The notes under the pieces: model-generated
The model's input: only the letters and a program-made list of their open reading frames with translations
Told to the model about the DNA's origin: nothing
Database searches by the model: none
Translations under genes and position numbers: made by a program
Part shown: piece after piece, positions 1,446-20,000 of the stretch
Position numbering within the stretch: the first letter of the stretch is position 1
Layout of the letters: the number at the start of each line of letters is the position of its first letter
Source of the DNA: an uncultured virus (IMG/VR IMGVR_UViG_3300002175_000051)
Taxonomy: Duplodnaviria > Heunggongvirae > Uroviricota > Caudoviricetes
Strand: one strand, 5' to 3'
Virus record (IMG/VR): IMGVR_UViG_3300002175_000051
DNA: 20,000 nt

Positions 1446-1472
1446 GGCGGCAAAGCCGCCTTATGCGCGAAA
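1446..1472 (+). promoter_or_regulatory. Hairpin motif copy 1 (GGCGGCAAAGCCGCC-N7-CGAAA)
   Basis: One of five copies; ATG at 1498 is 38 nt after the hairpin end. Confidence 0.75.
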
Positions 1473-1497
1473 TAATAAAATCCAAAGGGGTGTCTAT

Positions 1498-1755
1498 ATG
1501 TACAAGGTTATAGGGAAGCACCGTTATTACGATGTCAGCGATGTTTTGGTTGACCGATACTTAAGTGAGAAAGACGCCACCCAGCTTGCCAATGATATAA
1601 ACGAGAGAATTTCACTCTGGGCTGAAGACGACCCGTATCATTACGTGGCCGTAGCAGACAACACGGACGAATGCTCTGGTGATTGCGCTGGTTGCGTGGA
1701 CGGCGGTTTCTTAGGGGCCGCCGACGGCTCATGCGCCATTTACCGCAAAGATTAA
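1498..1755 (+). CDS. Small acidic protein with Cys cluster (CSGDCAGC)
   Basis: RBS AAAGGGG, 85 aa, followed by a terminator. Confidence 0.8.
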   Translation: MYKVIGKHRYYDVSDVLVDRYLSEKDATQLANDINERISLWAEDDPYHYVAVADNTDECSGDCAGCVDGGFLGAADGSCAIYRKD

Positions 1756-1759
1756 TACC

Positions 1760-1788
1760 GCCGGGGGTTTTATGCCCCGGCTTTTTTT
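1760..1788 (+). terminator. Intrinsic terminator
   Basis: GCCGGGG/CCCCGGC stem followed by T7. Confidence 0.85.
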
Positions 1789-1826
1789 AAAAATTAAATT
1801 TTGATCTAAAATATAGGGGGTTTATT

Positions 1827-2357
1827 ATGTTCAAGAATACTTGGAACGCGTTAAAAAGTGATTTATCCGGTATTAAAGATAGCGCTGGCCCTGCCATTAC
1901 AAAAGCTAAAATCAGCGCTTTGCAAAAGACCTCGGATTTATTAGGTATGGCTTCCGAAAAACTGGACAATATCGCCTCCGGGGTCAAAGAGTTCAAATAC
2001 AGCGTCCTGCAATTTGACTATAGCAAGCACGAGGATTTATTCTTTACGGTCATGTTCCTATGTGATTTAAACGTAATACAAAATGAGATGCTTAAGCGCA
2101 CGTATGAAATCACTGCTACCGGATCCGTAAAGGCCGAGTCCGAAGAGGACGCGCTTGAAGTTATTTTCGCGAAAGAGAACGGCGCGCACGAAGAGTATAG
2201 CCGTAGCGAGACCTTGCTTCATTCGGTATCCGTCGGGGATCTCGTTTTAATGAATAGAAAGATATTTGTTTGCCGGCCTACCGGATGGGCGCGCATCGAT
2301 GCTGAGGCCCACCAGGAGAGCATCCTTAATAGGAGGGTTATGTATACCGGCAGTTAA
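1827..2357 (+). CDS. YodL-like domain protein with N-terminal amphipathic extension
   Basis: LEVIFAKENG...HSVSVGDLV...FVCRPTGW matches the YodL-like pattern (LE.IF..FN...SLSVSDVV...YYVD..GF); RBS AGGGGG. Confidence 0.6.
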   Translation: MFKNTWNALKSDLSGIKDSAGPAITKAKISALQKTSDLLGMASEKLDNIASGVKEFKYSVLQFDYSKHEDLFFTVMFLCDLNVIQNEMLKRTYEITATGSVKAESEEDALEVIFAKENGAHEEYSRSETLLHSVSVGDLVLMNRKIFVCRPTGWARIDAEAHQESILNRRVMYTGS

Positions 2358-2375
2358 TTTTAATTAAAACCTTAC

Positions 2376-2412
2376 GGCTTCGCTGAATTTATGGCGAAGC
2401 CATTTTATTTTT
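2376..2412 (+). terminator. Intrinsic terminator
   Basis: GGCTTCGC/GCGAAGCC stem with T-rich tail. Confidence 0.75.
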
Positions 2413-2434
2413 GAATGTGAGGGGTGTCCCGGTT

Positions 2435-2578
2435 ATGGACTGTAAAGGCATTTTCTGCGAGATGTGTTTCGAATGCAAAAGTTATGTTGTCACTGACACG
2501 GAAGATGTAATCTGCACGCTCTGGAACCCGGAAAATCCGGAGGCGGATTATTTAATCATTAAAACTAAAAGCGCATAG
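2435..2578 (+). CDS. 47-aa Cys-rich miniprotein (MDCKGIFCEMCFECKSY...), not in ORF track
   Basis: RBS GAGGGG, ATG 2435, TAG 2576-2578 overlapping the next RBS. Confidence 0.7.
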   Translation: MDCKGIFCEMCFECKSYVVTDTEDVICTLWNPENPEADYLIIKTKSA

Positions 2579-2588
2579 GGGGTTTATT

Positions 2589-2786
2589 ATGAAGATATTA
2601 AAGGCGTGTATTACAATGGCCTTTTGGGCTACAGGCATGTGTTTTACCGTGAACGGGTATAAGAATTATTACAGTGGGGACACAGAGGCCGCCAACTCCA
2701 ATTTTAAAAAATCATATTTCTTCCATGTGCCGGCCATCATTTTAGGCTGTGCCGGATGGAACGTTAAAAATGCATTAGCGAAATAA
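2589..2786 (+). CDS. Small putative membrane protein
   Basis: RBS AGGGGG; two hydrophobic segments. Confidence 0.7.
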   Translation: MKILKACITMAFWATGMCFTVNGYKNYYSGDTEAANSNFKKSYFFHVPAIILGCAGWNVKNALAK

Positions 2787-2811
2787 TTTATTTACATTAC
2801 CTATGAGACAG

Positions 2812-2868
2812 ATGCCCGCGCTGCCGATACCGGACAATCATCCGGGCCGGCGCGGGCATATATTTTTT
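2812..2868 (+). terminator. GC-rich long hairpin / terminator
   Basis: ATGCCCGCGC...GCGCGGGCAT followed by a T-rich tail. Confidence 0.7.
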
Positions 2869-2894
2869 ATTTCCCCTGCGGGGCTTATTAGGGG

Positions 2895-2973
2895 TATCTG
2901 ATCGACGTGGGCATATCTGATCGACGTGGGCTTTTTATTGCCAGATCGGCCTGGCCCTCTAATCGACGTAGCC
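2895..2973 (+). repeat. 18-bp tandem repeat TATCTGATCGACGTGGGC x2 (2895, 2914) plus a degenerate third copy (2958-2973)
   Basis: Read directly. Confidence 0.85.
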
Positions 2974-2981
2974 GGAGTATA

Positions 2982-3006
2982 TTAATAATCCGTATTGGAT
3001 TATTAA
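2982..3006. promoter_or_regulatory. Inverted repeat TTAATAATCC-N5-GGATTATTAA, probable TA autoregulatory operator
   Basis: Perfect 10-bp arms immediately upstream of the antitoxin RBS; Phd-family antitoxins bind such palindromes. Confidence 0.6.
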
Positions 3007-3024
3007 ATTCCGGAGATGATCGGT

Positions 3025-3357
3025 TTGATAATAAAGCCCAGCAGCGATTTAAGGAAGAATTACAATAGCGTAGCGCAGGTAGCCATAGAGACAGGCGAAC
3101 CCATATTTTTGACCCTAAACGGCGAGGGCCACACGGTACTTCAAAGCGTCACGGCCTTTAATAAACGCGATGAAAATTTAAAGATAGCGGAACAATTAAT
3201 AGCCGCGGAACGCGGCCGCGCAGCGGCCGCCATATTTAATGGACCAGAAAACTGTGTCCGCTATGGACACAGTATCCCGGATTTTGAGCGTGCGGTAAAA
3301 TCCGGGATAGAGGGGGAGGGGCTGCCGGAATATGATCAGCTTTCTCTTGACGATTGA
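3025..3357 (+). CDS. Type II antitoxin, Phd/YefM family
   Basis: IIKPSSDLRKNYN...GEPIFLTLNG...VLQS is the typical Phd N-terminus. TTG at 3025 follows GGAG; ATG 3016 is an alternative start. Confidence 0.85.
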   Translation: MIIKPSSDLRKNYNSVAQVAIETGEPIFLTLNGEGHTVLQSVTAFNKRDENLKIAEQLIAAERGRAAAAIFNGPENCVRYGHSIPDFERAVKSGIEGEGLPEYDQLSLDD

Positions 3358-3649
3358 CCCTAATGTAACGGAGTCCATGGTTACGCATTTCAAAAAGGTC
3401 GCGGGCAAAAATAAGGCGGCCGCATTAAACCTATTGGCAGAGTTAATATCGGATCTAAATTTAATTCTAAACAACCCGTTCGACCGGCCGCCATATAACG
3501 GCCCGTACATACCCATAGGCAAATACGCGTACGTACTATCAAATAAATCGGCGCGCTACAAAATTATTTATCAAGTAGAAAAAAATAATGCCGAAGGCGC
3601 GTTCCGCATATATGTTGACTGCATATTGGACACGCTGTATATAAAATAA
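3332..3649 (+). CDS. Type II toxin, RelE/ParE family (divergent)
   Basis: Overlaps the antitoxin; L..NPF.RP...Y.IIYQV....IYVDCILD pattern. Confidence 0.7.
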   Translation: MISFLLTIDPNVTESMVTHFKKVAGKNKAAALNLLAELISDLNLILNNPFDRPPYNGPYIPIGKYAYVLSNKSARYKIIYQVEKNNAEGAFRIYVDCILDTLYIK

Positions 3650-3687
3650 TGTATGTGGATCTACCATATGCGTGTATACCCCCTTCC

Positions 3688-3734
3688 CTTTAGTGCAATG
3701 CCCGGCCGGCTGATCCTACTTCCCGGCCGGGCAT
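3688..3734. repeat. GC-rich inverted repeat (AATGCCCGGCCGG...CCGGCCGGGCATT)
   Basis: 13-bp perfect arms downstream of the TA pair. Confidence 0.75.
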
Positions 3735-4316
3735 TCCCTATTTTAGCATACCCTCCAAATGGGCTGAAAATAGCGATCTCGGTATTTTGCCCGAAATGCT
3801 TGATAAACGCTTGGTTTGCCCATACAAACGGTTCAAAACCGTGCGCAAATGGCAGGAATGTTTATGGTTTTGGCGGGTTATATGCGCAAAAGCCGCGAAA
3901 TCTTCGCGGCGGGGCGATGGCAGTCCCGTTGTCTCTTTTATGCCCTATTTTTAGCATTTCCGGTTATTCCGATTGACCTTCGGGGAAATTTAATTTATTA
4001 TAGACCTAGTTTACCTAATGATAACGGTTACTGTTTTATTATACGTAATTCCCTTATTTCCCGTGGTTTATATGGTTATAGTTTTTCTTTCTTAATGCTT
4101 TTCGATAAATTTTCATTTACAGGATATACGGTTTTATTTATGTGTGTTTTTGGTATTTTATCCTTTAAGGTTTATAAATATTGATTTATAGACCTTTTTT
4201 ATTAAAAATTTATTTAATCAAACTACATAGTATAGTGTGTATTCTTTGATTTGCTTAGAGCTTACAGTGAAATATGCGTTTGGCTTCAATTTATATTTTC
4301 GTTGGGGAGGTTTTAC

Positions 4317-5033
4317 GTGAGCAATTCTAATCAGGATGTCAATTCTTTATTTACCGGGCTGCCTCCTGGGTATAGTTATAGGCTTGACAAGACGTTTACG
4401 TATAGCAATGGGTATGCCTCCTACCGTGTCATATTAATAACGCCTGAGGGCAAGGAAATCCCTCTTGTTGGCGAGAACGACAGCCCAATAAGTTTTCCGA
4501 ATGCTCCGGGCAGTGTTTATTCGTTGAGAAGTGTTTGTGATACGTTAATCAAAATGGAAATAGGGTCAGGCGAAGCGTATTATTATCATGTCCACGGATA
4601 CGGGGAGCGTACCGGAGAGTATCTCAACGCCTGTAAAGAAGATCTATTATTGAGCGATATAACCGTTACCGGAGACTTGTCTGATTTTAATGACGGATGG
4701 ACTCAAATAGACGGCGGGTTTAACCAAAACGAAATATTTATTAAGCCTGAAAGCCCGTTCCATTATATCGCGGCCTTTCAGGTAAGGGCGGATAATGATA
4801 CAACATTAGAATATCGTTATACGTTTAACAAACGTCCGACTATTGATAATGTAATGACCGCGCAGTTAATCTATAATATCCAGAAGGATTTCAGGCTGGG
4901 CAAATATACCGAGAGTTATTTTTGCTGGGAGTGCGGAAATAAGGTAATGAATTGGATCGACACAGACGGCGGGCTGAGGGAGAAATGGGACTGCCTGAAA
5001 GAGAAATACTGCGGGTGTAAAAAGTATGTTTGA
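4317..5033 (+). CDS. Hypothetical protein with C-terminal Zn-binding motif (CWECG...KYCGC)
   Basis: GTG at 4317 after GGGGAGG; in frame with the track ORF 4251..5033. Confidence 0.8.
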   Translation: MSNSNQDVNSLFTGLPPGYSYRLDKTFTYSNGYASYRVILITPEGKEIPLVGENDSPISFPNAPGSVYSLRSVCDTLIKMEIGSGEAYYYHVHGYGERTGEYLNACKEDLLLSDITVTGDLSDFNDGWTQIDGGFNQNEIFIKPESPFHYIAAFQVRADNDTTLEYRYTFNKRPTIDNVMTAQLIYNIQKDFRLGKYTESYFCWECGNKVMNWIDTDGGLREKWDCLKEKYCGCKKYV

Positions 5034-5059
5034 TTAGGATGCGTTATGTTACATAAAGG

Positions 5060-5781
5060 GATTGAACAATACGTTATATTTCCTTAACGTGCGAACAATC
5101 TTTCTTTATTGAGTAAAATTCTCCTTAACGTGCGTTATCCGCGTTTTGCTGGCGGTAACTCAATATAAAAAACTCGAAAAAAGCTTAAACGAAAGCAAAG
5201 GAGTCCAATCTGAAATATGAGATCAAAAAATAAAAGAAAGGAGGGGCTAACTAAAAGGTCTGCCTGTATAGAAAAGAATGTACTTAGAGTGCAGAAATTT
5301 ATATGACGCACTTTCAAGGTATAGACAGGAATAGCCAGGTATCTGGCATGATTAAGGATAATGATCTGTCTAAAGCAATTGCCGGCCAGGGCTTCTATTA
5401 TTTCCGTAAATGGCTTGTATCTTGAATTCCCGTTTAACATAACGGGGATCAACTAAAAACCTTCAGGGATCGAACTAAGTATGGCCAACTGGTTCTATCC
5501 GAGCTGTAGAGCCTGCTGCATATGGAAAGATAAAAACTGTTCTCAGGCTAAAATATAGGGGTATGTCTGTGATTGTGGTAATCCGATAGATAGGGATTTA
5601 AACGCTGCCATCAACCTTGACAGATGCAGCTAATATAAAATAATTAAGCGAATGTACCGTAGGGTAATACGTGGAAACCTGGGGGCGCTAACTTATACTA
5701 AAGCAGCCATAGCAAAATCGGGTACGTTGAACCAGGTATACTCTAAATACATATTCTATATGTATTAGTTAGCAGAACAGG
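5060..5781 (+). mobile_element. Decayed non-autonomous IS607- or IS200/IS605-family element
   Basis: tnpB remnant plus about 150 nt of right end resembling an omega-RNA region (GTACCG...TTGAACCAGG), sub-terminal hairpin 5746-5766, ending in GG. Left boundary uncertain. Confidence 0.6.
5161..5633 (+). pseudogene. tnpB: tnpB pseudogene (frameshifts, stops, deletions)
   Basis: Translated fragments KKLEK/KLKRKQRS, IEKNVLRVQK, VSGMIKDNDLSKAIAGQGFYYFRKWL, GIELSMANWFYPS, YVCDCG, DRDLNAAINL (5589-5618). Confidence 0.9.
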
Positions 5782-6108
5782 ATGCCGAATAACAGAAGGC
5801 CAGAAGTAGTACGCGAAGACAAGGCTATGGATATAGCTAAATTAATAGACAGGGCCATGTTTGAAATTATAAAAGCTGAAATGACCGCCGAAGAGCTTGA
5901 GGGTAAATTCGATTCCGTATTGGGCGATTACCGGGGGCTCCCGACTGACGGAATTAAAAAAGCATTCATAGGCTTATGCAATTACATAAATCATTTCCGC
6001 CCGTGCCCGGAATGCTTTAAATGCGAACATTACAACAATGCGGACAATATTTGCCTTCTTGAGAAAGCGGGGTGCCTAGACAGGGCAGTTCATGCAGGCA
6101 TACTGTAA
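5782..6108 (+). CDS. Hypothetical protein with Cys cluster (CPECFKC...C....C)
   Basis: 108-aa ORF; the start may be ATG 5827. Confidence 0.65.
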   Translation: MPNNRRPEVVREDKAMDIAKLIDRAMFEIIKAEMTAEELEGKFDSVLGDYRGLPTDGIKKAFIGLCNYINHFRPCPECFKCEHYNNADNICLLEKAGCLDRAVHAGIL

Positions 6109-6146
6109 ATGAAACGGAAATGCCATTAATTTCCTCGAAATATTGT

Positions 6147-6175
6147 TTGACTAATTTTTAATATGGTTTTATAAT
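6147..6175 (+). promoter_or_regulatory. Sigma-A type promoter
   Basis: TTGACT-17-TATAAT. Confidence 0.8.
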
Positions 6176-6201
6176 GGATTTAATCATAATCAATATCATT
6201 T

Positions 6202-6238
6202 TGCCGAAGGCTTTTTATATGCCTCCGGTATTTTTTTT
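6202..6238 (+). terminator. Terminator-like hairpin between the promoter and the DUF2325 gene
   Basis: TGCCGAAGGC/GCCTCCGGTA stem (one mismatch) followed by T8. Confidence 0.6.
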
Positions 6239-6251
6239 GATATAGTGGTAC

Positions 6252-7739
6252 ATGCGTAATTTACATAAGAGAGATGGGTTTTTTAAAATGATGATTGAAG
6301 GCTCTGTATCAACAACCGACATGATATATTTCGTAGCGGAGGCAATGGCCCTTGACCCCTCGCACCTTAAAGAGCTTGACGACCTTTACCAGATGAACAA
6401 GCTTTTATTTAATAAAGCCGCAATGACTTCTAAATATTACGACAGTTTCATAATAAAGCAAAATTCAATCGTAAAAATGGAGTATACCCGGAAAGCGCTG
6501 GGCATCCTTACGTATACGATGGATCATGCGGGGGAGCCTTGCGAATATTACCAGAACCTAATTGAATTTATTAAAAAATCCTACCCGTACGCATTCCAAT
6601 ACGTAAAAAATACCGAACAGGTAAGCTTTGACGATTTTATTTTCCGCTTTGTAAAAAAGAAAAAGGGTATAGGGAACGTATCGGACGACGAGCTTAACAG
6701 CACGCTCGTGATGCTCGTGTACCTATGCAAGTGCTTCGAGAAAGATATCCCCAATGACTTTACGTTATGCACGCTTATGGAAGACTATGTGATGTCAAGG
6801 ATTGAGCTGTGCGGCGAGGGGGTAAACAGCGCCCTGCATTCCGACGCCCTTAACAAGGTCGCAAGGATCATAATTAAAAAGTATTGTGAGGGCTATTCTG
6901 TTGACGGGATAAACAACGGGGAGTTTTTGCGCGAGCTGGGCGATGACCATACCAGAAGGTTTTTTGTCCTATTCGATTTTATACCAATTGACATAGTTTC
7001 CCTTATAGAGTCAACGTCATACGACAAAGACATTTTAATGAACATCGTAAAAGGCTATATCTGCTATAAAGAGATAGACGGCAATGAAAAAATAGACGGC
7101 ATAGACGTGCGCGACCTCCGTGAGTACATTGTGTACGGGGCCCTTTACTATAAGCTCGCCCAGGCATACGGCGAGGTACGCGACTATTATTTCAAGAACA
7201 ATAAAGAGACGCTGCTGCTTGAGATTGAAAACGTAAAAAAAGGCATAGCCGAAATAGAATTAAAATACAAGAATTTAAACGGCGCCAAGAAGGACACGGA
7301 AGCTAGGCTTATTGAGGCGGAGCGCGTAAACAAGAGGCTCCGCAAAGAGGTAATGGAGCTTAAAAGGAACCAGACGGACTTGGCCGGCCTCCGGAAGCTC
7401 GCCTTCTCATTGAAGTCAGACGAAATAGTCGAGCCGAACGAACCTGTGCGCTTTGATTCCCTCAAAGGCGTCAAGGCCGTCATAGTTGGCGGCCAGGATA
7501 GCTGGCAAGCGAAGATGAAAGAGCATCTGCCGGACTGCGTATTTATCGGGATAGGCGCGGAAAAATTTGACGTGCGGCTGCTTAGCGGCTGCCGGGACAT
7601 ATTTTTAAACACCAGGCACATGACCCATAAATTATACTATAGGGTCATCGAGAACCTGGACAAGGGCGCCCGCGTACATTATTTCAGCCGGGACAATATT
7701 CATTTGTGTTTGATAGATATAGCGAACTCAAAAAGCTAG
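6252..7739 (+). CDS. Helical/coiled-coil protein with C-terminal DUF2325-like domain
   Basis: VIVGG..W...MK...D+IFLNT.HM.H.LYY.V motif after a long coiled coil. Confidence 0.75.
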   Translation: MRNLHKRDGFFKMMIEGSVSTTDMIYFVAEAMALDPSHLKELDDLYQMNKLLFNKAAMTSKYYDSFIIKQNSIVKMEYTRKALGILTYTMDHAGEPCEYYQNLIEFIKKSYPYAFQYVKNTEQVSFDDFIFRFVKKKKGIGNVSDDELNSTLVMLVYLCKCFEKDIPNDFTLCTLMEDYVMSRIELCGEGVNSALHSDALNKVARIIIKKYCEGYSVDGINNGEFLRELGDDHTRRFFVLFDFIPIDIVSLIESTSYDKDILMNIVKGYICYKEIDGNEKIDGIDVRDLREYIVYGALYYKLAQAYGEVRDYYFKNNKETLLLEIENVKKGIAEIELKYKNLNGAKKDTEARLIEAERVNKRLRKEVMELKRNQTDLAGLRKLAFSLKSDEIVEPNEPVRFDSLKGVKAVIVGGQDSWQAKMKEHLPDCVFIGIGAEKFDVRLLSGCRDIFLNTRHMTHKLYYRVIENLDKGARVHYFSRDNIHLCLIDIANSKS

Positions 7740-8578: not shown

Positions 8579-8613
8579 AACCGCCCTCTTTTGTATAAAG
8601 CGGGCGGTTTTTT
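8579..8613 (+). terminator. Intrinsic terminator
   Basis: AACCGCCC/GGGCGGTT stem followed by a T-run. Confidence 0.85.
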
Positions 8614-8634
8614 ATTTAAATTTTTCCGAAAAAA

Positions 8635-8661
8635 GGCGGCAAAGCCGCCGACTTCGTGAAC
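8635..8661 (+). promoter_or_regulatory. Hairpin motif copy 2 (GGCGGCAAAGCCGCC-N7-TGAAC)
   Basis: ATG 8690 is 41 nt after the hairpin end. Confidence 0.75.
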
Positions 8662-11113: not shown

Positions 11114-11143
11114 AGATTGAGGGTTTCGCCTCAATCTTTTTTT
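11114..11143 (+). terminator. Intrinsic terminator
   Basis: AGATTGAGG/CCTCAATCT stem followed by a T-run. Confidence 0.85.
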
Positions 11144-11153
11144 ATTTGGCAGA

Positions 11154-11180
11154 CGCGGTAAAACCGCGTAGTTTTCGCAT
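11154..11180 (+). promoter_or_regulatory. Hairpin motif copy 3, variant (CGCGGTAAAACCGCG-N7-CGCAT)
   Basis: Two compensatory pair changes; ATG 11205 is 37 nt after the hairpin end. Confidence 0.65.
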
Positions 11181-13498: not shown

Positions 13499-13530
13499 AT
13501 GCCCCGTGATATCTATCGGGGCATTTTTAT
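13499..13530 (+). terminator. Intrinsic terminator
   Basis: ATGCCCCG/CGGGGCAT stem followed by TTTTAT. Confidence 0.8.
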
Positions 13531-13549
13531 TCGGACAATCGTTCAGAAA

Positions 13550-13576
13550 GGCGGCAAAGCCGCTTGGTCTATGAAA
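13550..13576 (+). promoter_or_regulatory. Hairpin motif copy 4 (GGCGGCAAAGCCGCT-N7-TGAAA)
   Basis: ATG 13604 is 40 nt after the hairpin end. Confidence 0.75.
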
Positions 13577-14309: not shown

Positions 14310-14360
14310 TATACGCTAAGGGAATAAAAGACGTTAAGGCCGAATTTTTTATACGCTAAG
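14310..14360 (+). repeat. TATACGCTAAG at 14310 and 14350, with degenerate AGACGTTAAG at 14329
   Basis: Read directly; roughly 20-bp phasing. Confidence 0.65.
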
Positions 14361-14387
14361 ACCGTTTTTTTAAGGGATGGGATTTAT

Positions 14388-14648
14388 ATGAATCATTACG
14401 ATAAGATCCAGTATGATATCAGTTTAGGCAGGGCCTATGATTTGTACCGGTTAGACTGGTGTAAAGAAAGAGGCTATGACATTAAGGATTACGACGATGA
14501 ACACGGTTTTAACGGCGAGTCTTTTGTATGTAAAGCTGAATTTGAAACAAACGAGTTCTTTGATAAAGAATATATAAAGTATCTTTTTGACAAAGAAAAT
14601 TTTAAGATCTATTTAATGTTATTAGATAAAATTGGCATTAAGGGATAA
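14388..14648 (+). CDS. Hypothetical acidic protein
   Basis: 86-aa ORF with RBS. Confidence 0.75.
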   Translation: MNHYDKIQYDISLGRAYDLYRLDWCKERGYDIKDYDDEHGFNGESFVCKAEFETNEFFDKEYIKYLFDKENFKIYLMLLDKIGIKG

Positions 14649-14670
14649 ATTTCAGGAGGTATTAAAGCAC

Positions 14671-15033
14671 ATGCGTAAATTCGAGGACGTGATTAAATCA
14701 CCGCGGCTATCGATCACGACTGTTCAGGACAACAGCATAAGGGGGCTTAGCGCATTCTTATCCCATCCTGCATATAAATCAAACGATATAGCTATTATAG
14801 CTGGCTGGGACGAACAGGCCATAGACGGCAAAAAGCTTGAGCATGTTAGCGTGTCGCTTAGGCGGCGCTGCCCTACTTGGGAAGAGATGTGCATTGTCAA
14901 GGATATATTCTGGGCTGATAACGAATGCGTCATCCAGTTCCACCCGCCAAAACACAAATATACAAACATGCATCCATACTGTTTGCACATGTGGCGGAAA
15001 CCTGGCTGGGAACCGGAAATGGATTGGGATTAA
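14671..15033 (+). CDS. Conserved phage-type protein (HVSVS...PTWEEMC.VK..FW...HP.CLHMW)
   Basis: AGGAGG then ATG 14671; the motif is recalled as common in prophages. Confidence 0.8.
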   Translation: MRKFEDVIKSPRLSITTVQDNSIRGLSAFLSHPAYKSNDIAIIAGWDEQAIDGKKLEHVSVSLRRRCPTWEEMCIVKDIFWADNECVIQFHPPKHKYTNMHPYCLHMWRKPGWEPEMDWD

Positions 15034-15052
15034 ACTATAAAGGGGGAAATGT

Positions 15053-15634
15053 ATGAACGACGTTATGTCCCAGGACGGCAAGACTATCCGTAATGCAAAA
15101 ATTGGCGATATTGTTGGCGTCATGCTTGAATCCGGCAAAATGGACGCTAAAATATATGAAGTCATCGGGGAGAGCAAAGGGTATTCCGTATTGAGCCGCG
15201 TGCTTAAGCAGCCCGGCTACCCTAACGCTGGCTATAAGTCCGAGTACCGTGCCAAAGGAATTTACCTTGTCCTTTTAGACGAAGGCAAAGGTCGGGTGCG
15301 TAAAGTTTCCCAATGTATTGATCAAAACAATGCGGTAAACAAATCAGCCGAATTAGAGTCGCTAAAAATAAAATATTTCTCGAACTTTATGACGGGCGAA
15401 ATAGAGATGGATTTTAAAAAGCGTTTTGTTATTTTAGACCACTGCCTGTCGCCCGAAAACATATCCCATGATGGGGAGCTTTCCCGCGTCGAAGTCATGA
15501 AGAAGCATAGGGAGCTTCAAATGCTATGGCGTGAGACCGAGCGGGAGTTCGGCCAAAAGGTCAATGCTACCGACGTATATAAATGGGCTGAAGCTGAAAT
15601 GGAGGAAAGGCGTGAAAAGAGAAGGGAAGTATAA
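15053..15634 (+). CDS. Hypothetical protein
   Basis: AAGGGGG RBS; 193 aa. Confidence 0.8.
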   Translation: MNDVMSQDGKTIRNAKIGDIVGVMLESGKMDAKIYEVIGESKGYSVLSRVLKQPGYPNAGYKSEYRAKGIYLVLLDEGKGRVRKVSQCIDQNNAVNKSAELESLKIKYFSNFMTGEIEMDFKKRFVILDHCLSPENISHDGELSRVEVMKKHRELQMLWRETEREFGQKVNATDVYKWAEAEMEERREKRREV

Positions 15635-15782
15635 AAAATATTATTGGTACCTTTATCCCGATTTTGGTTATTATATATGTTCCGTCTGGATAGATGGGAA
15701 AGAAAATAAGATATATGGCGATACCCTCAAAGAAATGAAAAATAAAGTGGATAAATTCATTACAGATAATAATTTGTTATAA
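15612..15782 (+). CDS. 56-aa basic protein, possibly an integrase arm-binding/AP2-like fold
   Basis: GGAGG then GTG 15612; IYGDTLKEMK.K motif. Confidence 0.5.
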   Translation: MKREGKYKKYYWYLYPDFGYYICSVWIDGKENKIYGDTLKEMKNKVDKFITDNNLL

Positions 15783-15816
15783 TAAAATTTATATTATAAC
15801 AAATTGGGTGAAATAA

Positions 15817-16719
15817 ATGGGCAAACTTATTGATTTAATAGGAAAAAGATTTGGGCTTCTAACTGTCATAAGCAGGGCGGAGAATTATATTAAGCCAAGC
15901 GGCCAAGTTGTCGCCAAATGGAACTGTATTTGTGACTGCGGTGGTTCAGTGACAGCAAGAAGTCAAGAATTACGTAAAGGTGACACCAAATCATGCGGCT
16001 GTTTAAAAAATATGAATTTGACAGGCCAGATTTTTGGGAAATTAAAAGTAGTAGATCGAGCTGAAGATTATATTTGTTCAAATGGAAATAGAATAAGCAT
16101 GTGGAATTGTATATGTGATTGCGAAAAAGCTACTATTAAAGCTATATTGCAGTCTAGTTTAATATCAGGCCATACACGCTCATGTGGCTGCTTGAAAAAG
16201 GAATATGCCGAAAATTTAAGGGGCGAACGCAACAAATATGATTTAACAGGCGAATTTGGCATTGGGTATACGCATGAAGGGATTGAATTTTGGTTTGACA
16301 AAGAGGATTACGACATTATAAGCAACCATTGCTGGCACGTAAATGAAAAAGGTTATTTGGTGGCAGGTTTTAATGATAAAAATATACGAATGCATAGGTT
16401 AGTAATGAAACCAGCAGACGATGCGCATGTTGATCATAAGGATCATAATACTTTGGATAACCGGAAAACAAATTTGCGTATAGCAACGCCACAACAAAAT
16501 AGTTTTAACACACAATCTGTAAAAAGAAATACCTCCGGAACTATTGGAGTTTATTGGGATAAAAGCAAAAATAAATGGTTGGCTTCGATAAGATTTAATG
16601 ACCGTCAAATTTATTTAGGGCGTTTTAAAGATAAAGACGACGCTATAAAAGCTAGAAAAGAAGCCGAAGAAAAGTATTTTGGTGAATGGAGTTACGAAAA
16701 TTCAATCAAAAATAAATAA
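15817..16719 (+). CDS. Free-standing HNH homing endonuclease with two N-terminal Cys repeats and C-terminal AP2 domain
   Basis: Two L.G..FG.L.V...W.C.CDC...SCGC repeats; HR...VDHKDHNTLDNRKTNL; GVYW....KW.A.I......YLG.F; AT-rich; extended -10 at 15775-15783. Confidence 0.92.
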   Translation: MGKLIDLIGKRFGLLTVISRAENYIKPSGQVVAKWNCICDCGGSVTARSQELRKGDTKSCGCLKNMNLTGQIFGKLKVVDRAEDYICSNGNRISMWNCICDCEKATIKAILQSSLISGHTRSCGCLKKEYAENLRGERNKYDLTGEFGIGYTHEGIEFWFDKEDYDIISNHCWHVNEKGYLVAGFNDKNIRMHRLVMKPADDAHVDHKDHNTLDNRKTNLRIATPQQNSFNTQSVKRNTSGTIGVYWDKSKNKWLASIRFNDRQIYLGRFKDKDDAIKARKEAEEKYFGEWSYENSIKNK

Positions 16720-16729
16720 GGGGGCTGTT

Positions 16730-16975
16730 ATGATAGAGCCATATGACCCGACGGATTATAACGACATACGCAACCGCTTCGACCCCAGTGCCCACATAGG
16801 GATATTGTGGCATGTTTCTGACGTTCAGGAAGTCCGCCCCGATTTAGATGACGACAAAGCCATGGAGGTATTAAAGAAGGCAGAACGGCACCATGATTGT
16901 AATATCGGGATTACATGGGACATCCTTAAATTTTGGGCAAATGATTTATTCCCGAAAGGCAATGCGGATGAATGA
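16730..16975 (+). CDS. Phage-type hypothetical protein (W...DV...RPDL...A.EVL......HD...GITW)
   Basis: AGGGGG then ATG 16730. Confidence 0.8.
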   Translation: MIEPYDPTDYNDIRNRFDPSAHIGILWHVSDVQEVRPDLDDDKAMEVLKKAERHHDCNIGITWDILKFWANDLFPKGNADE

Positions 16976-17420
16976 GATTAGGGGCAACATCTTTAAATAC
17001 ATAGGAAAAGCCGACGCCGTTTGTGTGACTACGAACGGCGTTTTAAAAAAGGGCGAGGACGGTTGTCCTAGCCTTGTAATGGGTAAAGGCATAGCCCTGG
17101 CGTTCGCTAAGAGATACCCCAGGCTCCCGTCCATATTGGGCGGCCATGTCAACCGATTCGGAAACCGGGCATTCCGGGTCAGGGAAGAAAATATAGACAT
17201 AGTCTCATTCCCGACTAAGCATAATTGGCGCGACAATTCAGACATATCGCTTATTAAAAAGTCAGCCAAAGAAATAGTGGAGATGGCCGATAAGTTTAAT
17301 TGGAATAGAATAATCCTCCCGCGGCCCGGGTGCAGCAACGGGCAATTGGACTGGAAGGACGTTAAAAAAGAAATTGAAGGGATTTTAGACGACCGGTTTT
17401 ATGTAATAACAAAATTTTAA
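16968..17420 (+). CDS. Macrodomain ADP-ribose hydrolase (DarG/TARG1-like)
   Basis: GNIF, TTNG, VMGKGIA, FPTK..W, P.PGC.NG.L.W motifs. Confidence 0.9.
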   Translation: MNEIRGNIFKYIGKADAVCVTTNGVLKKGEDGCPSLVMGKGIALAFAKRYPRLPSILGGHVNRFGNRAFRVREENIDIVSFPTKHNWRDNSDISLIKKSAKEIVEMADKFNWNRIILPRPGCSNGQLDWKDVKKEIEGILDDRFYVITKF

Positions 17421-17441
17421 CCTAAAAGGGGTGTTACCACG

Positions 17442-17568
17442 ATGGATAAGGTAATTGGCAGCAATGCCTTTTTTTTTTATGTGGTTTGTAATAGTTTTAT
17501 TGCTCGTCAGCCCGTTCCTGGCAATAGGTTTCCTTATTGTCAGGTTTTTTATGTCTTTATTTAAATAG
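17442..17568 (+). CDS. Small membrane peptide; frameshifted at a T10 tract if started at 17442, or intact 34 aa from ATG 17464
   Basis: AAAAGGGG then ATG 17442; hydrophobic frame MWFVIVLLLVSPFLAIGFLIVRFF ends at TAG 17568. Confidence 0.55.
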
Positions 17569-17579
17569 GGGGGGCATTA

Positions 17580-17759
17580 ATGAAACTCACATCATTATTA
17601 TATGACGCGTCCCGCAAGATTGGGAAACTAGCCAGTGCCTTATATGACGTAGAGGTGCTGGCTTCCGGCGATCCAAAGAGAATCGTTAAACGGGCGGCAA
17701 AAAAGGGCATCCGGAAAAAAGTATATAAAGGTTTAAACAAAGCGCTCAGAAAGTGGTGA
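17580..17759 (+). CDS. 59-aa basic amphipathic protein, not in ORF track
   Basis: G7 RBS then ATG 17580; MKLTSLLYDASRKIG...ALRKW. Confidence 0.8.
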   Translation: MKLTSLLYDASRKIGKLASALYDVEVLASGDPKRIVKRAAKKGIRKKVYKGLNKALRKW

Positions 17760-17764
17760 GATAA

Positions 17765-18667
17765 ATAACGCTCCGGGAAACAAAAGAAAAATTAAAAACC
17801 TGCCTGTTAAACAAAGGGTTCGTCATACATGAATACGACGCCTACTCGACGAATTCCTTATACATTAAAATCGACTACGGCGCCTGCAACACTATCCGAA
17901 TATCCGACCATTCCGGCAAAGGCCATTTAAAGTATATGTATAATGTGCTGCCTTACGTAAAAGAACGGTATCGCGTTAAACGCGATAATTATACGATGTA
18001 TTTTTACCCGATGACGGAGGAAGGGCTTTCAAGGCTCTTAAGCGATATATATCGCCGCCGCCAGCAGCGTTTTTTTAACAGAAAAATATACAGCAAGCTC
18101 CTTGCCGACTACAAAGAGGCCGGCCGCTATGCCAAAGGCTTCTGGACGCAGGCTGTTTGTACCATGCCAAGCGACGAGTCCAAAAAGAAAGCGTGGGATA
18201 AATTAATGTGCATCAAAGGGAAGACCCTTGAATGCTCTTCAGCCGGCGATAAACGCTTCTCGGCCCTCTACGCAAAGGTAAAGGTATTTGGTATTGAAGA
18301 CACCATAGAGGGCCACTATCAGGGCTGTAAGAGGCTACAGGACGGTTCACGCACTCATAAGGGGCAACGCCCCTATTCACTTGACATCTACGGCATACAG
18401 CTCGATATAAAGTACCTTACGGCCTACTACAAGCTTCTCTGGTACAAGTACCTCTGCCAGCATAAGGAGCTTGTGGAGTATGCGTGCGCCTTTGACAACT
18501 TTACCGATAAATTCAGGGGCAAGAATACCGTCAATTGCCAGGCCGACGTGATAAAGCAGTTCGTCAAGCAAGGTCTCAAGTCTATTGTAAATGAGCGCGA
18601 TGTCGTTGACTTGCTAAAAATATTAGCAAAAAAGAAGGAGGAAGAATCAATTTATGAAGAAGTTTAG
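17765..18667 (+). CDS. Fusion: N-terminal RISDH-motif domain plus C-terminal NADAR-like domain
   Basis: Frame is open 57 codons upstream of ATG 17936, back to ATA 17765 after GGTGA. C-terminal LECSS.GDKRFSA...IE..YQ..K resembles NADAR-like proteins. Confidence 0.6.
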   Translation: MTLRETKEKLKTCLLNKGFVIHEYDAYSTNSLYIKIDYGACNTIRISDHSGKGHLKYMYNVLPYVKERYRVKRDNYTMYFYPMTEEGLSRLLSDIYRRRQQRFFNRKIYSKLLADYKEAGRYAKGFWTQAVCTMPSDESKKKAWDKLMCIKGKTLECSSAGDKRFSALYAKVKVFGIEDTIEGHYQGCKRLQDGSRTHKGQRPYSLDIYGIQLDIKYLTAYYKLLWYKYLCQHKELVEYACAFDNFTDKFRGKNTVNCQADVIKQFVKQGLKSIVNERDVVDLLKILAKKKEEESIYEEV

Positions 18668-19001
18668 GATCCCGGTAAGCTGGTCCGCCACAGCTACCTT
18701 AATTGTAGAGGCGGAATATTTGGAAGCCGCTGTCTCGCACGCCAAAGAATCACCGCTGCCGGACGAATACGAATACGTAGACGGCTCCTTTAAGGTCGAT
18801 TCATATTTGATAGACGAGTTCCCGGATGACTACGGAGAGATGAAAACAGGCGAAGCAAACAGGGTATGCCGCCGCTGCAAGTCGCCCGTCCATTATTCGG
18901 ATAACCCTGAATATAAATATCAATGTTTTCAATGTGATGAAGACCTCTATGAATTTGAGACGGATCTTAAGGAGGATGGTTCAAATCAACCCGTATCATA
19001 A
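18654..19001 (+). CDS. Hypothetical protein with C-terminal zinc ribbon (CRRC...CFQC)
   Basis: GGAGG RBS; overlaps the upstream gene. Confidence 0.8.
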   Translation: MKKFRIPVSWSATATLIVEAEYLEAAVSHAKESPLPDEYEYVDGSFKVDSYLIDEFPDDYGEMKTGEANRVCRRCKSPVHYSDNPEYKYQCFQCDEDLYEFETDLKEDGSNQPVS

Positions 19002-19617
19002 ATTCCAACAAGCGCCCATGCAATGCCTCTATTTAACATGGGGCGAAATCTCTGCGGTCATGTCGGACGAGCTGACAAAACTTCTGTCGCGCCGGATTGA
19101 AGCCGATGCGGCAAGGGAATATCTGCAATGCTGGGTCCTACAATTATTCATGAACCCATTGACCCCTGACGAGCTTGAAAAAGTATTTGATTATGCCGGC
19201 GCCGACGAATGGGATCGCGAGCAAAACTATTATGAGGACGGTAAAGTCATGGAGCTGTGCGAGGCCCTTTGCGGGAAGATAATCAATAAGCATTTGCCTT
19301 TTAAGTTGGCCGATAAATGCCAGGACGAAAAAGGTGTATGGTTTATAAGCTATGTCGGGGCAATAGACAGGATACAGATCCCTATCCCTGGCGGGGTATC
19401 GCTTTGCGCCGAATTATTCATCGACACGGAATACCCCGGCATTAACTTGTTTTTACGGAAACCAGGCGAAATAGACAAAGCATTATGTTTTGCCGAACAT
19501 AACCCTTCGAAACCTCCGGGCAAAGAGGTTTGTATCGGGGTTTACGCGGAAAATATGGACGATCCGGTTTATTATGAAAGCTATAACGATCCGCAGCAGG
19601 AGAGCCCAAACAATTAA
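18976..19617 (+). CDS. Hypothetical acidic protein (start uncertain)
   Basis: Long ORF in the operon. Confidence 0.75.
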   Translation: MVQINPYHKFQQAPMQCLYLTWGEISAVMSDELTKLLSRRIEADAAREYLQCWVLQLFMNPLTPDELEKVFDYAGADEWDREQNYYEDGKVMELCEALCGKIINKHLPFKLADKCQDEKGVWFISYVGAIDRIQIPIPGGVSLCAELFIDTEYPGINLFLRKPGEIDKALCFAEHNPSKPPGKEVCIGVYAENMDDPVYYESYNDPQQESPNN

Positions 19618-19637
19618 TTAGGAGGTCTGAATAGCTT

Positions 19638-19928
19638 ATGCTTAAAGAAATGTTTGACGGAAAGATAATCCCGAGCGAACGCCGTAACCCAAACGCGGCC
19701 AAGCAGCTAGAAATATCGCGCAAAATTACCGCGATGGAAAACGGTCTGGCCGAAAAGCTCCCCCCGGAAGATTGTGAGCGGCTGAAAGAACTTTCCGCCT
19801 TATACTCGGAGCTTTATAAATTTGAAGAAAGCGATACTTTCGCTTATGGATTTTCTGTCGGGCTTTTTTTAATGCAGGACGCCTTGAATATACTGAAAAC
19901 AATGCTTCCGGACGATAATGCAGGCTAA
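19638..19928 (+). CDS. DUF6809-like protein
   Basis: L.E+F.G.I.P.E...F.YGF..G..LM pattern; AGGAGG RBS. Confidence 0.75.
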   Translation: MLKEMFDGKIIPSERRNPNAAKQLEISRKITAMENGLAEKLPPEDCERLKELSALYSELYKFEESDTFAYGFSVGLFLMQDALNILKTMLPDDNAG

Positions 19929-19940
19929 ATCTCCAATACT

Positions 19941-19967
19941 GGCGGCAAAGCCGCCTGATTGACGAAA
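19941..19967 (+). promoter_or_regulatory. Hairpin motif copy 5 (GGCGGCAAAGCCGCC-N7-CGAAA)
   Basis: AAGGAG and ATG 19995, 40 nt after the hairpin end; the gene runs off the window. Confidence 0.75.
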
Positions 19968-20000
19968 TTTTATAAAAAAAAGGAGATGTTTTTAATGGCT

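Follow-up and report, generated by a model that had tools for sequence, protein, structure and literature searches.

What reads the short hairpin that recurs between the genes of an uncultured termite-gut phage, always in the same orientation and always shortly before a start codon? The window analysed here is a 20,000-nt stretch of a 90-kb fragment of this phage; the full record (89,989 bases) is about 42% of the genome by the CheckV estimate, about 58% being missing.

Copies, strand and layout of the hairpin element

The first-pass annotation had placed five copies of the element in the window, at 1446, 8635, 11154, 13550 and 19941 (first base of a 15-mer of 6+3+6, the 13-mer core starting one base later), all in one orientation. 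All five are present at these positions, on the + strand:

1..1329, + strand: final 442 codons of the gene for a single-chain two-barrel RNA polymerase (Pfam PF05183)
1446..1471, + strand: copy 1, gGCGGC-AAA-GCCGCc, N7, CGAA; 118 nt past the polymerase stop codon; ATG at 1498
8635..8660, + strand: copy 2, gGCGGC-AAA-GCCGCc, N7, TGAA; ATG at 8690; heads ORFs up to 11097
11154..11179, + strand: copy 3, (a)cGCGGT-AAA-ACCGCg(t), 7 bp, then CGCA; ATG at 11205; heads ORFs up to 13489
13550..13575, + strand: copy 4, GCGGC-AAA-GCCGC with outer G-T, then TGAA; ATG at 13604, of a YpsA/SLOG-like protein
19941..19966, + strand: copy 5, gGCGGC-AAA-GCCGCc, then CGAA; ATG at 19995

A pattern scan of the window for GCGGYAAARCCGC returned five exact matches, on the + strand only. 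When up to two mismatches were allowed, 8 matches were found; 200 shuffles of the window yielded 1.84 on average and 6 at most, never 8. Extending the exact scan to the whole record, a check that the annotation had proposed, brought the count to six, all on the window's + strand and none on the opposite strand; the reversed control pattern had no match in the 89,989 bases. The sixth copy lies at window-scale coordinate 21551, ~1.6 kb past the window. All six copies are intergenic, and the exact-match scan found none among the structural genes, which occupy the opposite strand of the record. The sequence also bears out the variants described earlier, namely the two compensatory pair changes of copy 3 (cGCGGTAAAACCGCg), the one copy within this phage in which such changes are seen, and the terminal G-T of copy 4.

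The layout downstream of the hairpin was likewise as claimed (YGAA, once CGCA, at a fixed spacing from the stem, then an RBS and an ATG at +37 to +41), and the conserved tetranucleotide is found in the sixth copy as well. After N8 from the 13-mer, copies 1-6 read CGAA, TGAA, CGCA, TGAA, CGAA and CGAA, the G of the YG step being 16 nt from the loop centre in 6/6 copies. An RBS-preceded ATG follows 38, 41, 37, 40 and 40 nt after the 13-mer in window copies 1-5. The 8 nt after the stem contain 3-5 T but no run. On the upstream side the distance from stop codon to hairpin varies from 14 to 159 nt, and a search for conserved sequence there found none. The 14-nt case is copy 5, which follows the stop of ORF 19638-19928 with no terminator in between. 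Most genes in the units led by hairpins are ORFans, but Macro, NADAR-like and SLOG-like proteins also occur; the genes after copy 4 include DUF7694, HNH-AP2, Macro and NADAR-like proteins.

The adjoining polymerase gene

The gene that ends 118 nt before copy 1 extends in full over L010:472-4290:- and encodes 1272 aa. The protein matches Pfam PF05183 (RdRP) with an E value of 2e-15 and 56.9 bits (cut-off 23.8). Its GADFDGD motif is invariant in a four-sequence alignment, and a profile of the polymerase (A3) matches RDR2 (7eu0, E 3.7e-14) and QDE-1 (2j7n, E 9e-12). A Pfam scan of the 119 ORFs of the record detected no sigma domain, and no relaxase, Rep or TnpA (Y1) was found among the same ORFs. 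A TnpB-like gene is present elsewhere in the record, with no hairpin copy nearby.

Terminators and sigma-70-type sites near the hairpins

The following neighbouring signals were considered:

8580..8617, + strand: intrinsic-terminator-like hairpin with T-tract, closing the preceding unit, 17 nt before the 15-mer of copy 2 (read from the sequence)
11114..11147, + strand: intrinsic-terminator-like hairpin with T-tract, 6 nt before the 15-mer of copy 3 (terminator scan and sequence)
13499..13531, + strand: intrinsic-terminator-like hairpin with T-tract, 18 nt before the 15-mer of copy 4 (read from the sequence)
5617-5644, + strand: sigma-70-type match (11 of 12), TTGACA-16-AATAAT, before ORF 5782
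6147-6175, + strand: sigma-70-type match (11 of 12), TTGACT-17-TATAAT, before ORF 6252

Three copies thus follow an intrinsic terminator, as had been noted, but at 17, 6 and 18 nt rather than at the 10-21 nt given. The terminator at 8580..8617 was missed by the terminator scan, probably because of its long loop. The reported absence of sigma-A -35/-10 elements at the hairpins was upheld: among the sites listed in the window scan, none of sigma-70 type falls in the 60 nt before any of the five start codons. Over the window, 43 such sites were found against 47.4 expected, which is no enrichment. ORFs 5782 and 6252, preceded by the two matches above, have no hairpin and form a contrast class. Where the copies lie 6-18 nt past terminator T-tracts, there is no space for a host promoter.

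Co-occurrence of hairpin and polymerase in relatives

Scanning relatives and examining stem covariation had also been suggested, and both gave positive results. Relatives at about 34% identity carry the hairpin together with the PF05183 polymerase; their stems differ by compensatory changes, and a conserved GA keeps its distance from the stem. A perfect NNNGC-AAA-GCNNN hairpin stands at 14 of the 17 polymerase 3' ends examined, with stems GCGGC, CAGGC and CGAGC and every change compensated; one (L157) has a degenerate hairpin and two (L132, L155) have none. Across 24 sources (541,279 bases), the GCAAAGC core has fully complementary 3-nt flanks in 37/113 cases on the polymerase strand versus 1/90 on the other strand, and adding GA at the same spacing gives 24/27 versus 0/2; many of the copies counted are homologous, so that these figures represent few independent events.

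In most relatives the hairpin lies within the polymerase ORF, with a strong intrinsic terminator 100-150 nt downstream, so that a promoter reading must also assume that the phage enzyme ignores such terminators. In G002 and L171 it stands immediately before a terminator-like hairpin. The in-ORF 13-mer is identical in 12 relatives and is read as Q-A-K-P in 11 of them, the remaining one (L134) using another frame (TGKAC*). Codon positions flanking it show 6-10 different codons, and at the GA site Arg is encoded by NGA throughout. The identity of the 13-mer amid variable flanking codons indicates constraint at the nucleotide level. The annotation had named frequent occurrence across the host chromosome as evidence against its proposal. 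All copies of the motif in the MAGs G002, G004 and G005 (1, 2 and 1, respectively) are on the polymerase contig, and none lies outside it; it is not a host-genome motif. In Clostridia genomes, the 22-40 kb surrounding four PF05183 homologues that are more distant showed no repeated GC-rich hairpin.

A hairpin of similar build in Bacillus phage 0305phi8-36

The sole homologue of the polymerase in the phage database is ORF099 of Bacillus phage 0305phi8-36 (22% identity), which, like the window phage, is a jumbo-type Firmicutes phage with a PF05183 polymerase. Its genome carries 19 copies (18 unique) of a CGT-TCGC-ACG hairpin on the gene strand and none on the opposite strand, with stems of 5-8 bp followed by a T-rich stretch. 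In 15/18 the G of a YGTA lies 14.5 nt from the loop centre, with an RBS and ATG after it; the TGTA can be as near as 3 nt to the RBS. Paired cells make up 93.7% of the stem alignment (shuffles, 69.2%), and covariation scores 0.642 (shuffles, 0.148), with 0/500 shuffles reaching 0.642; the outer stem takes many sequences while pairing is kept. For this phage, Hardies, Thomas and Serwer (2007; PMC2147016) put forward a 21-bp motif, present in 14 copies, as gp99 promoters, and their text leaves open the alternative that host polymerase is directed to the motif. The text gives the 21-bp logo and, where it does so, does not call the motif a hairpin; the CGT-TCGC-ACG hairpin is presumably the same element.

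Like the window element, the 0305phi8-36 motif is dispersed, same-strand, intergenic and of non-sigma-70 type, and it is located in the non-structural arm. The two phages share a common build of hairpin, fixed spacer, Y-G step, short leader and RBS. The cores are unrelated: that of 0305phi8-36 is CGT-TCGC-ACG (4-nt loop, TGTA downstream), that of the window phage GC-AAA-GC (3-nt loop, YGAA downstream).

Interpretation and rival readings

On balance we lean towards the view that the six GCGGYAAARCCGC-N8-YGAA elements are hairpin-recognised promoters of the phage's own 1272-aa single-chain two-barrel polymerase. We infer all four components of this view: promoter identity, the start site, formation of the hairpin in DNA, and the polymerase as reader. 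The polymerase, or a factor bound to it, would recognise the 5-7-bp, 3-nt-loop hairpin of the inverted repeat by reading the invariant GC-AAA-GC core, and the outer stem would only have to pair. Transcription would begin at a set distance from the hairpin, the probable first nucleotide being the G of the Y-G step (16 nt from the loop centre), and leaders of about 28-32 nt, RBS included, would result. The adjacent intrinsic terminators may keep host-polymerase read-through out of the downstream genes, in which case the hairpin-led units would rely on the phage enzyme. The element-specific transcription signal proposed in the annotation thereby gains strong support of a circumstantial kind, from the polymerase gene 118 nt upstream, the co-travel of hairpin and polymerase in relatives and the parallel architecture in 0305phi8-36. 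If correct, this would be a promoter type so far never defined for the single-chain two-barrel polymerase class.

It is conceivable, though we think it rather improbable, that the hairpin acts instead in the RNA of transcripts begun upstream, where it could direct cleavage about 9 nt past the stem, stabilise a new mRNA end, or bind a phage antiterminator or translational regulator. The hairpin is always on the sense strand and is stable as RNA (-7 to -12 kcal/mol, versus -5 to -8 as DNA), and covariation is blind to RNA versus DNA pairing, the first unpaired position in 0305phi8-36 being uninformative. Its place in relatives' polymerase mRNA shortly before a terminator, as also in G002 and L171, would be useful for antitermination, and copy 5 lies 14 nt past a stop codon with no terminator intervening. 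However, the three copies 6-18 nt after T-tracts would be transcribed by read-through only, and upstream of the hairpin there is no conserved sequence that could be the promoter of such transcripts. A 3-nt loop with no boxA-like partner is unlike lambda-type nut sites, and Rfam at gathering score found no family except one tRNA in the window and four relatives' loci. The proximity of TGTA to the RBS in 0305phi8-36 is also easier to reconcile with a start site than with a signal internal to the RNA. It seems unlikely that the motif is recognised in duplex DNA. Its reader would then be a sigma-like factor of the phage that directs host polymerase, with the left arm serving as -35 and YGAAAT as -10 across a 16-nt spacer, or else a dimeric activator or repressor bound to the palindrome. 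The 16 nt between left arm and YGAA block are a normal -35/-10 spacing, the missing part of the genome could encode the factor, and Hardies et al. (PMC2147016) left open host-polymerase direction to their motif. Yet a sigma model accounts neither for the conservation of the right arm and loop nor for the compensated changes seen in copy 3 and the relatives, no sigma domain was found in the scanned ORFs, half-site centres are 8 bp apart and not a helical turn, and half-site recognition does not predict outer stems of diverse sequence that keep pairing, as in 0305phi8-36.

We give still less credence to the idea that the hairpin makes the phage polymerase terminate or pause, at unit ends beside host-type terminators and, in relatives, at the end of the polymerase gene. 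Such a role would suit its position at unit boundaries with adjoining intrinsic terminators (3/6 copies here and most relatives), its presence at 14/17 polymerase 3' ends and the T-rich stretch in 0305phi8-36. The spacing is nevertheless variable to the preceding stop codon and, in the five window copies, nearly constant to the next ATG, a fixed-distance conserved Y-G has no function in a hairpin terminator, the T residues after the stem form no run, and 0/5 window copies are listed as terminator-like on the + strand in the terminator scan. Several relaxases and transposases act on substrates in which a conserved site follows a hairpin by about 8 nt, and the record does hold a TnpB-like gene. 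A DNA-processing signal, be it a nick or recombination site for an HUH-type or other nuclease or an IS200/IS605-type remnant, is nonetheless very improbable: the 119 ORFs include no relaxase, Rep or TnpA (Y1), the TnpB-like gene has no copy near it, and the copies are locked to RBS and ATG, in gene orientation throughout.

Comparison with known systems

The promoter reading can be set beside other phage polymerases. YonO of Bacillus prophage SPbeta (Forrest et al. 2017, PMC5467207) is likewise a single-chain two-barrel phage RNA polymerase, described as transcribing a defined gene set, the late operon, from a single start; the sequence of its promoter is given in that paper as undetermined. 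Unlike the window polymerase, YonO is too distant for a PF05183 match in a Pfam search, and the SPbeta yonN-yonK gap holds no hairpin of GCGGYAAARCCGC type. Thermus phage P23-45 gp96 and gp64, also of the single-chain two-barrel class, each have their own short DNA motif upstream of mapped starts; these are described as AT-rich and GC-rich, and the word hairpin is absent from the main text (bioRxiv 2022.12.01.518664). For crAss-like phage phi14:2, early transcripts are reported to have no common motif, and enzymes of the two-barrel fold to prefer single-stranded DNA in vitro (bioRxiv 2020.03.07.982082). The annotation had also drawn an analogy with single-stranded promoters of plasmids, for which nothing was found in support; the element is a phage and not a plasmid.

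Its other analogy, with coliphage N4, stands as regards geometry. The early promoters P1-P3 of N4, read by the virion RNA polymerase, are reviewed in PMC4496689. In both phages the site is a short inverted repeat with a 5-7-bp stem and a 3-nt loop, inner bases are conserved while outer bases are free if paired, and several copies lie in one orientation in one genome region of a phage that encodes its own polymerase. The analogy does not extend to the enzyme, since the N4 vRNAP is a T7-like right-hand enzyme of unrelated fold, nor to the spacing, the N4 start being 11 nt from the loop centre and the Y-G step here 16 nt. The N4 loop contains a G-A sheared pair, an arrangement not available to an AAA/TTT loop. 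For N4, extrusion of the hairpin by gyrase and SSB has been shown (PMC4496689).

A same-strand hairpin downstream of an unusual polymerase gene

The dispersed hairpin pointed out by the first-pass annotation is present in all five copies claimed, in a single orientation; scanning the window for the exact 13-mer GCGGYAAARCCGC placed five of five on the + strand, each one base after the start of the 15-mer form used in that annotation. Allowing up to two mismatches gave eight matches in the window versus 1.84 expected, a number reached by none of 200 shuffles. The window corresponds to bases 45801-65800, minus strand, of a virus record that spans 89,989 bases and is estimated to be about 42% complete. 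Over this entire record the exact 13-mer occurs six times, always on the window's + strand and never on the opposite one.

Hairpin copies (start of the 13-mer, strand, tetranucleotide 8 nt past the 13-mer)
1447, +, copy 1, CGAA
8636, +, copy 2, TGAA
11155, +, copy 3, CGCA
13551, +, copy 4, TGAA
19942, +, copy 5, CGAA
1.6 kb beyond the window end, +, copy 6, layout as in the others

The stems of the six copies comprise 5, 5, 6, 6, 6 and 7 Watson-Crick pairs closed by an AAA loop, with predicted DNA hairpin energies of -7.4 to -8.3 kcal/mol. As had been reported, both differences that set copy 3 apart from the other copies are compensated (cGCGGT-AAA-ACCGCg) and copy 4 ends in an outer G-T. The downstream arrangement was likewise borne out: in the five window copies the tetranucleotide (listed above) is followed by an A/T-rich tract, a GGGG or GGAG ribosome binding site (RBS) and an ATG 37-41 nt from the 13-mer. 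After the stem the sole conserved site is the pyrimidine-G (Y-G) step of the tetranucleotide, 15-16 nt from the loop centre; upstream of the hairpin there is no conserved block, with one invariant column across six aligned sequences. The ATG follows at 37-41 nt, whereas the upstream stop codon is anywhere from 14 to 159 nt away, so the hairpin is tied to the gene that follows and not to the one that precedes it.

Further along the record are four sequences that resemble the motif more loosely (AGGGCAAAGCCCT, AAGGCAAAGCCTT and TCGGCAAAGCCGT twice); they have T-rich sequence after them and no Y-G site, and were left out of the copy count. The two TCGGCAAAGCCGT copies, at window-scale 45494 and 51297, are identical 13-mers each followed by a T-run, one upstream of a UvrD-like gene and the other upstream of an ORF at 51249; the pair may act as weak terminators or belong to a hairpin-signal class that has diverged. 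Among viral contigs, the matches listed for GCGGNAAANCCGC-N8-YGAA are unrelated single copies. One look-alike, locus L083, was rejected, its record showing no polymerase match.

Copy 1 begins 118 nt past the stop codon of a 1272-aa ORF, and the six copies, all pointing the same way as the ORF, are contained in the 20 kb that follow it. The ORF matches Pfam family PF05183 (RdRP) with an E value of 2e-15 (56.9 bits, cut-off 23.8). Residues 628-634 read GADFDGD, a stretch that does not vary among 4 sequences and is conserved to at least 90% among 10, which by its sequence is the DxDGD metal-binding loop of two-barrel RNA polymerases. A profile of the protein and nine relatives recovered, among solved structures, plant RDR2 (E 3.7e-14) and Neurospora QDE-1 (E 9e-12). 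The family is small, with 4 proteins in a word-indexed search and 10 cluster representatives at E <=1e-30. Viral contigs gave no match to the single protein or to a second polymerase alignment, and the alignment underlying the profile found phage 0305phi8-36 only. The interval between the polymerase stop codon and copy 1 contains a unit of about 19-25 nt repeated three times in tandem (window 1367-1430), starting each time with CCTTCGGT.

Genes for a DnaE-type polymerase, RecA, UvrD, SNF2, an SbcCD-like protein and SSB share the polymerase strand of the record; capsid, portal and terminase genes occupy the opposite strand. Neither a sigma-factor domain nor a T7-like single-subunit virion polymerase domain was detected by Pfam among the 119 ORFs scanned, which represent about 42% of the genome. 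PHROGs supplied names for almost none of the hairpin-led genes. The five runs listed as containing window 1201-11200 are all DNA and labelled termite gut metagenome, with no RNA run among them.

The unit behind copy 4 (window 13604-19617) encodes YpsA/SLOG-like, DUF7694, HNH-AP2, Macro-domain and DarT1-associated NADAR-like proteins, a mixture that suggests counter-defence against ADP-ribosylation systems. In the structural-gene arm, a 70-aa ORF (L011, a stretch of the phage record, 16095-16307, + strand) matches PF24729, the hairpin domain of Acb2/Tad1, with an E value of 8e-21; this family includes sponges of cyclic-nucleotide defence signals. A TnpB-like ORF (OrfB_IS605 plus a Cas12f1-like TNB domain) stands among the structural genes as an insertion of opposite orientation (L010, another such stretch, 16644-17729, - strand).

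A second dispersed repeat, the 12-mer GGACGATTGTCC (complement GGACAATCGTCC), occurs in six exact copies in 90 kb, with many near-copies, on both strands.

Positions of the 12-mer GGACGATTGTCC/GGACAATCGTCC
Window-scale -20715, -14595, -3463, 37485, 37499 and 37598, exact copies
In the window, near 3348, 13532-13543 (other strand) and 17057

Several copies are within ORFs, three of them in one GroES-like gene. Another lies between divergent genes, immediately before the 290-aa ORF that stands ahead of the polymerase gene; the A-rich leader and the RBS GGAGATGTT that follow it are the same as those of hairpin copies 5 and 6. The 12-mer could be an operator or a second class of signal.

Promoter and terminator context

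Inspection of the sequence alone had suggested that the hairpin-led genes have no evident sigma-A site and that three copies stand 10-21 nt after intrinsic terminators. The former agrees with our scan, in which the 60 nt upstream of each of the five start codons contain no listed sigma-70-type site. Terminator-like hairpins are there as well, although only two of the three distances fall in the range given: from the end of the T-tract it is 17 nt to copy 2, 6 nt to copy 3 and 18 nt to copy 4. The five copies themselves were not listed on the + strand by a scan for intrinsic terminators (GC-rich hairpin plus T-tract), and the 8 nt after the stem hold three to five T residues with no run.

The sigma-70-type matches of 11/12, at 5617 and 6147, precede two other genes, ORFs 5782 and 6252. 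They are situated between two modules that lack a hairpin copy, one consisting of a Phd/YefM-like antitoxin ORF and a small partner ORF (window 3016-3649), the other of a BrnT-like toxin ORF and two small ORFs (window 7793-8563).

Hairpins at relatives of the polymerase

Loci encoding relatives of the polymerase (33-37% identity) were collected from a genome scan (4) and a metagenome scan (21), two contigs being common to both; the four from the genome scan belong to Defluviitaleaceae MAGs. A perfect NNNGC-AAA-GCNNN hairpin is found at 14 of 17 readable polymerase 3' ends, of which twelve have the half-stem CAGGC, one has CGAGC and this phage has GCGGC. The remaining three are a degenerate CAGGCAAAGTCAG in locus L157 and two ends with no hairpin. 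Most relatives have the hairpin inside the polymerase ORF, followed by a strong terminator and, within about 40 nt, by the RBS of the next gene. The conserved stretch behind it was considered as a non-coding RNA and rejected, as it consists of the polymerase C-terminal tail (QAKPVEERLPL...AV-stop) plus the strong terminator.

In 11 in-frame relatives the four synonymous sites of the 13-mer are invariant, while flanking codon positions show 6-10 different codons. Locus L134 has the identical 13 bases in a different reading frame, and additional, non-coding copies occur in L134 (6849) and L158 (19163). The relatives' 13-mer is constrained at the nucleotide level. An arginine codon 9-11 nt past the stem is always CGA or AGA, with TGA in L160b, so that the GA equivalent to that of YGAA in this phage is retained.

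Sites chosen by the core alone were counted in 24 sources totalling 541,279 bases.

Copies of GCAAAGC with fully complementary 3-nt flanks, by strand
All GCAAAGC: polymerase strand, 37 of 113; other strand, 1 of 90
GA required at matching spacing: polymerase strand, 24 of 27; other strand, 0 of 2

Many of these copies are homologous, so that the counts reflect few independent events, four stem types in all. In three MAGs the motif is confined to the polymerase contig, and in the fourth seven of nine matches are on other contigs; among MAG sites outside the polymerase neighbourhood, GA stands at the corresponding place in one of eight. Searched against Rfam at gathering score, the sequences yielded one tRNA only, in a relative.

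A second class of conserved hairpin occurs in five relatives. It reads GCGCC-AAA-GGCGC, then N8 and TGAA, and is located at the 3' end of an ORF rich in lysine (...RAKGAxxVK...); in L133 the RBS of the next gene is about 60 nt downstream.

Positions of the GCGCC-AAA-GGCGC class in five relatives' loci
L159, 11153
L162, 18363
L163, 9794
L171, 12143
L133, 20094

A different hairpin in phage 0305phi8-36

The only phage-database homologue of the polymerase is ORF099 of Bacillus thuringiensis phage 0305phi8-36 (21.6% identity, E 2e-13). This phage resembles ours in combining a PF05183 polymerase with a dispersed, same-strand intergenic motif and no recognised sigma factor, whereas the core of its motif differs and bears no sequence likeness; it contains only two perfect 5-bp AAA-loop hairpins, neither of which recurs. 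Its top repeated non-AT-rich 10-mer is CGTGCGAACG, with 19 copies on one strand (18 unique, one being a terminal-repeat copy) and none on the other. On the gene strand this 10-mer forms the hairpin CGT-TCGC-ACG, extended by two to five more pairs of free sequence. Across the 18 copies, chosen by the 10-mer alone, 93.7% of cells are paired versus 69.2% in shuffles, and the covariation score is 0.642 versus 0.148, a value that none of 500 shuffles attained. All 18 copies keep pairing at two of the free pairs, where three and four pair types occur. A YGTA follows whose G is 14.5 nt from the loop centre in 15 of the 18 unique copies, regardless of stem length (two of the 15 read by eye where the script had picked a nearer TGTA), and then come an RBS and a start codon. 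The comparison of G-T with A-C at the first unpaired position, intended to separate RNA from DNA pairing, has to be read against a T-rich 3' flank. The available part of an earlier study of this phage proposes 14 copies of a 21-bp motif as targets of gp99 and describes no hairpin there (Hardies, Thomas and Serwer 2007, PMC2147016). Two polymerases of one family, 22% identical, are accordingly each accompanied by a hairpin of their own, a fixed spacer and a Y-G step, whose distance from the loop centre is 16 nt in our phage and 14.5 nt in 0305phi8-36.

Interpretation

On balance, we lean towards the element being a promoter of the phage's own two-barrel polymerase, with transcription beginning at the G of the Y-G step or close to it. 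This reading would best fit an element in which pairing is selected, which is tied to the downstream gene, has a pyrimidine-purine step at a fixed distance after it, often leaves no room for a host promoter and travels with an unusual polymerase. Against it, compensatory changes are seen in one copy only in this phage, one relative has a degenerate hairpin at its polymerase 3' end and two have none there; moreover, 58% of the genome is outside the record. The strongest rival, although an unlikely one, is a hairpin acting at the RNA level, in processing, stabilisation or antitermination. The sense-strand bias speaks for such a role, as does the position before terminators in the relatives; this same position would suit the promoter if the phage enzyme passes host-type terminators. 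Copies placed directly after terminators fit an RNA-level role poorly, and so does the absence of a promoter motif upstream of the hairpin. Lambda-type nut sites have a conserved boxA upstream, a boxB with a 5-bp stem and a purine-rich 5-nt loop, a promoter before them and terminators after. The hairpin is unlike these in its 3-nt loop, in having no conserved block before it and in the three copies that directly follow terminators.

Selection for pairing speaks against a site that is simply read by sequence on duplex DNA, and recognition by a sigma or dimeric factor, which leaves the covariation unexplained, seems improbable. We think it less probable still that the hairpin terminates transcription by the phage enzyme, since the fixed downstream spacing would go unexplained; a nick or recombination site, for which the record offers no matching enzyme, is the least credible of all.

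To return to the promoter, formation of the hairpin in DNA would be a further step, drawn from the N4 precedent (in the available part of PMC4496689) and from the preference of two-barrel-fold enzymes for single-stranded DNA (stated in the accessible portion of bioRxiv 2020.03.07.982082). Only tentatively do we suggest that phage polymerases of the QDE-1/RDR/YonO type find their genes via mini-hairpins extruded from DNA; they would bind the hairpin on one strand and begin RNA on the melted template, roughly 15 nt away from the loop. The enzyme would read through host-type terminators, so that a terminator next to each hairpin would leave the genes behind it strictly dependent on this enzyme. 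If true, this would provide a simple two-polymerase timing switch and account for the single-strand preference of the fold.

The pair described here is compact, one 1272-aa protein and a 26-nt signal, and its compensatory variants occur naturally; the second polymerase-hairpin pair is in a cultivable Bacillus phage. Should the hairpin reading hold, it would offer small orthogonal transcription parts for Firmicutes and a hint as to how ancestors of the RNAi polymerases chose their templates.

Comparison with known systems

In the literature searched, no promoter has been experimentally defined for any YonO/QDE-1-like phage RNA polymerase, the 0305phi8-36 motif of 2007 being a proposal only in the part of that paper available (PMC2147016). 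Nor are hairpin promoters of a YonO/RdRP-like polymerase described in that literature, which lies largely outside subscription journals and whose hairpin-promoter titles mostly concern N4 or N4-like phages. The available text on YonO gives its promoter sequence as not determined, and reports little pausing and no flap domain (PMC5467207). Primers for PYonO in the supplement of the YonO paper map to the yonN-yonK gap of SPbeta, as does a hairpin GGAGA-TTCC-TCTCC; the SPbeta record has no PF05183 match and the yonN-yonK region no NNNGC-AAA-GCNNN hairpin. Four distant homologues, from 399 Clostridia genomes scored, have no repeated GC-rich hairpin within 22-40 kb in a search that required perfect 5-bp stems and would overlook weaker forms. 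The lack of such hairpins at these four homologues and in SPbeta counts against the promoter reading, as does a crAss-like phage study which, in the part available, gives no motif for its enzyme (bioRxiv 2020.03.07.982082).

The hairpin resembles N4-type promoters in its 5-7-bp stem and 3-nt loop. N4-type promoters are conserved from -17 to +1, with a GC-rich heptamer centred at -11 and a start 11 nt from the loop centre, whereas here the conserved site, a candidate start, is at 15-16 nt; their reader is a T7-like single-subunit virion polymerase, whereas the polymerase found here belongs to PF05183. N4-type hairpins extrude when the DNA is supercoiled and are stabilised by SSB. The hairpin reading, if true, would make promoter recognition by structure known from two independent cases, and extrusion of the mini-hairpins would mean that an unrelated fold had converged on the N4 strategy.
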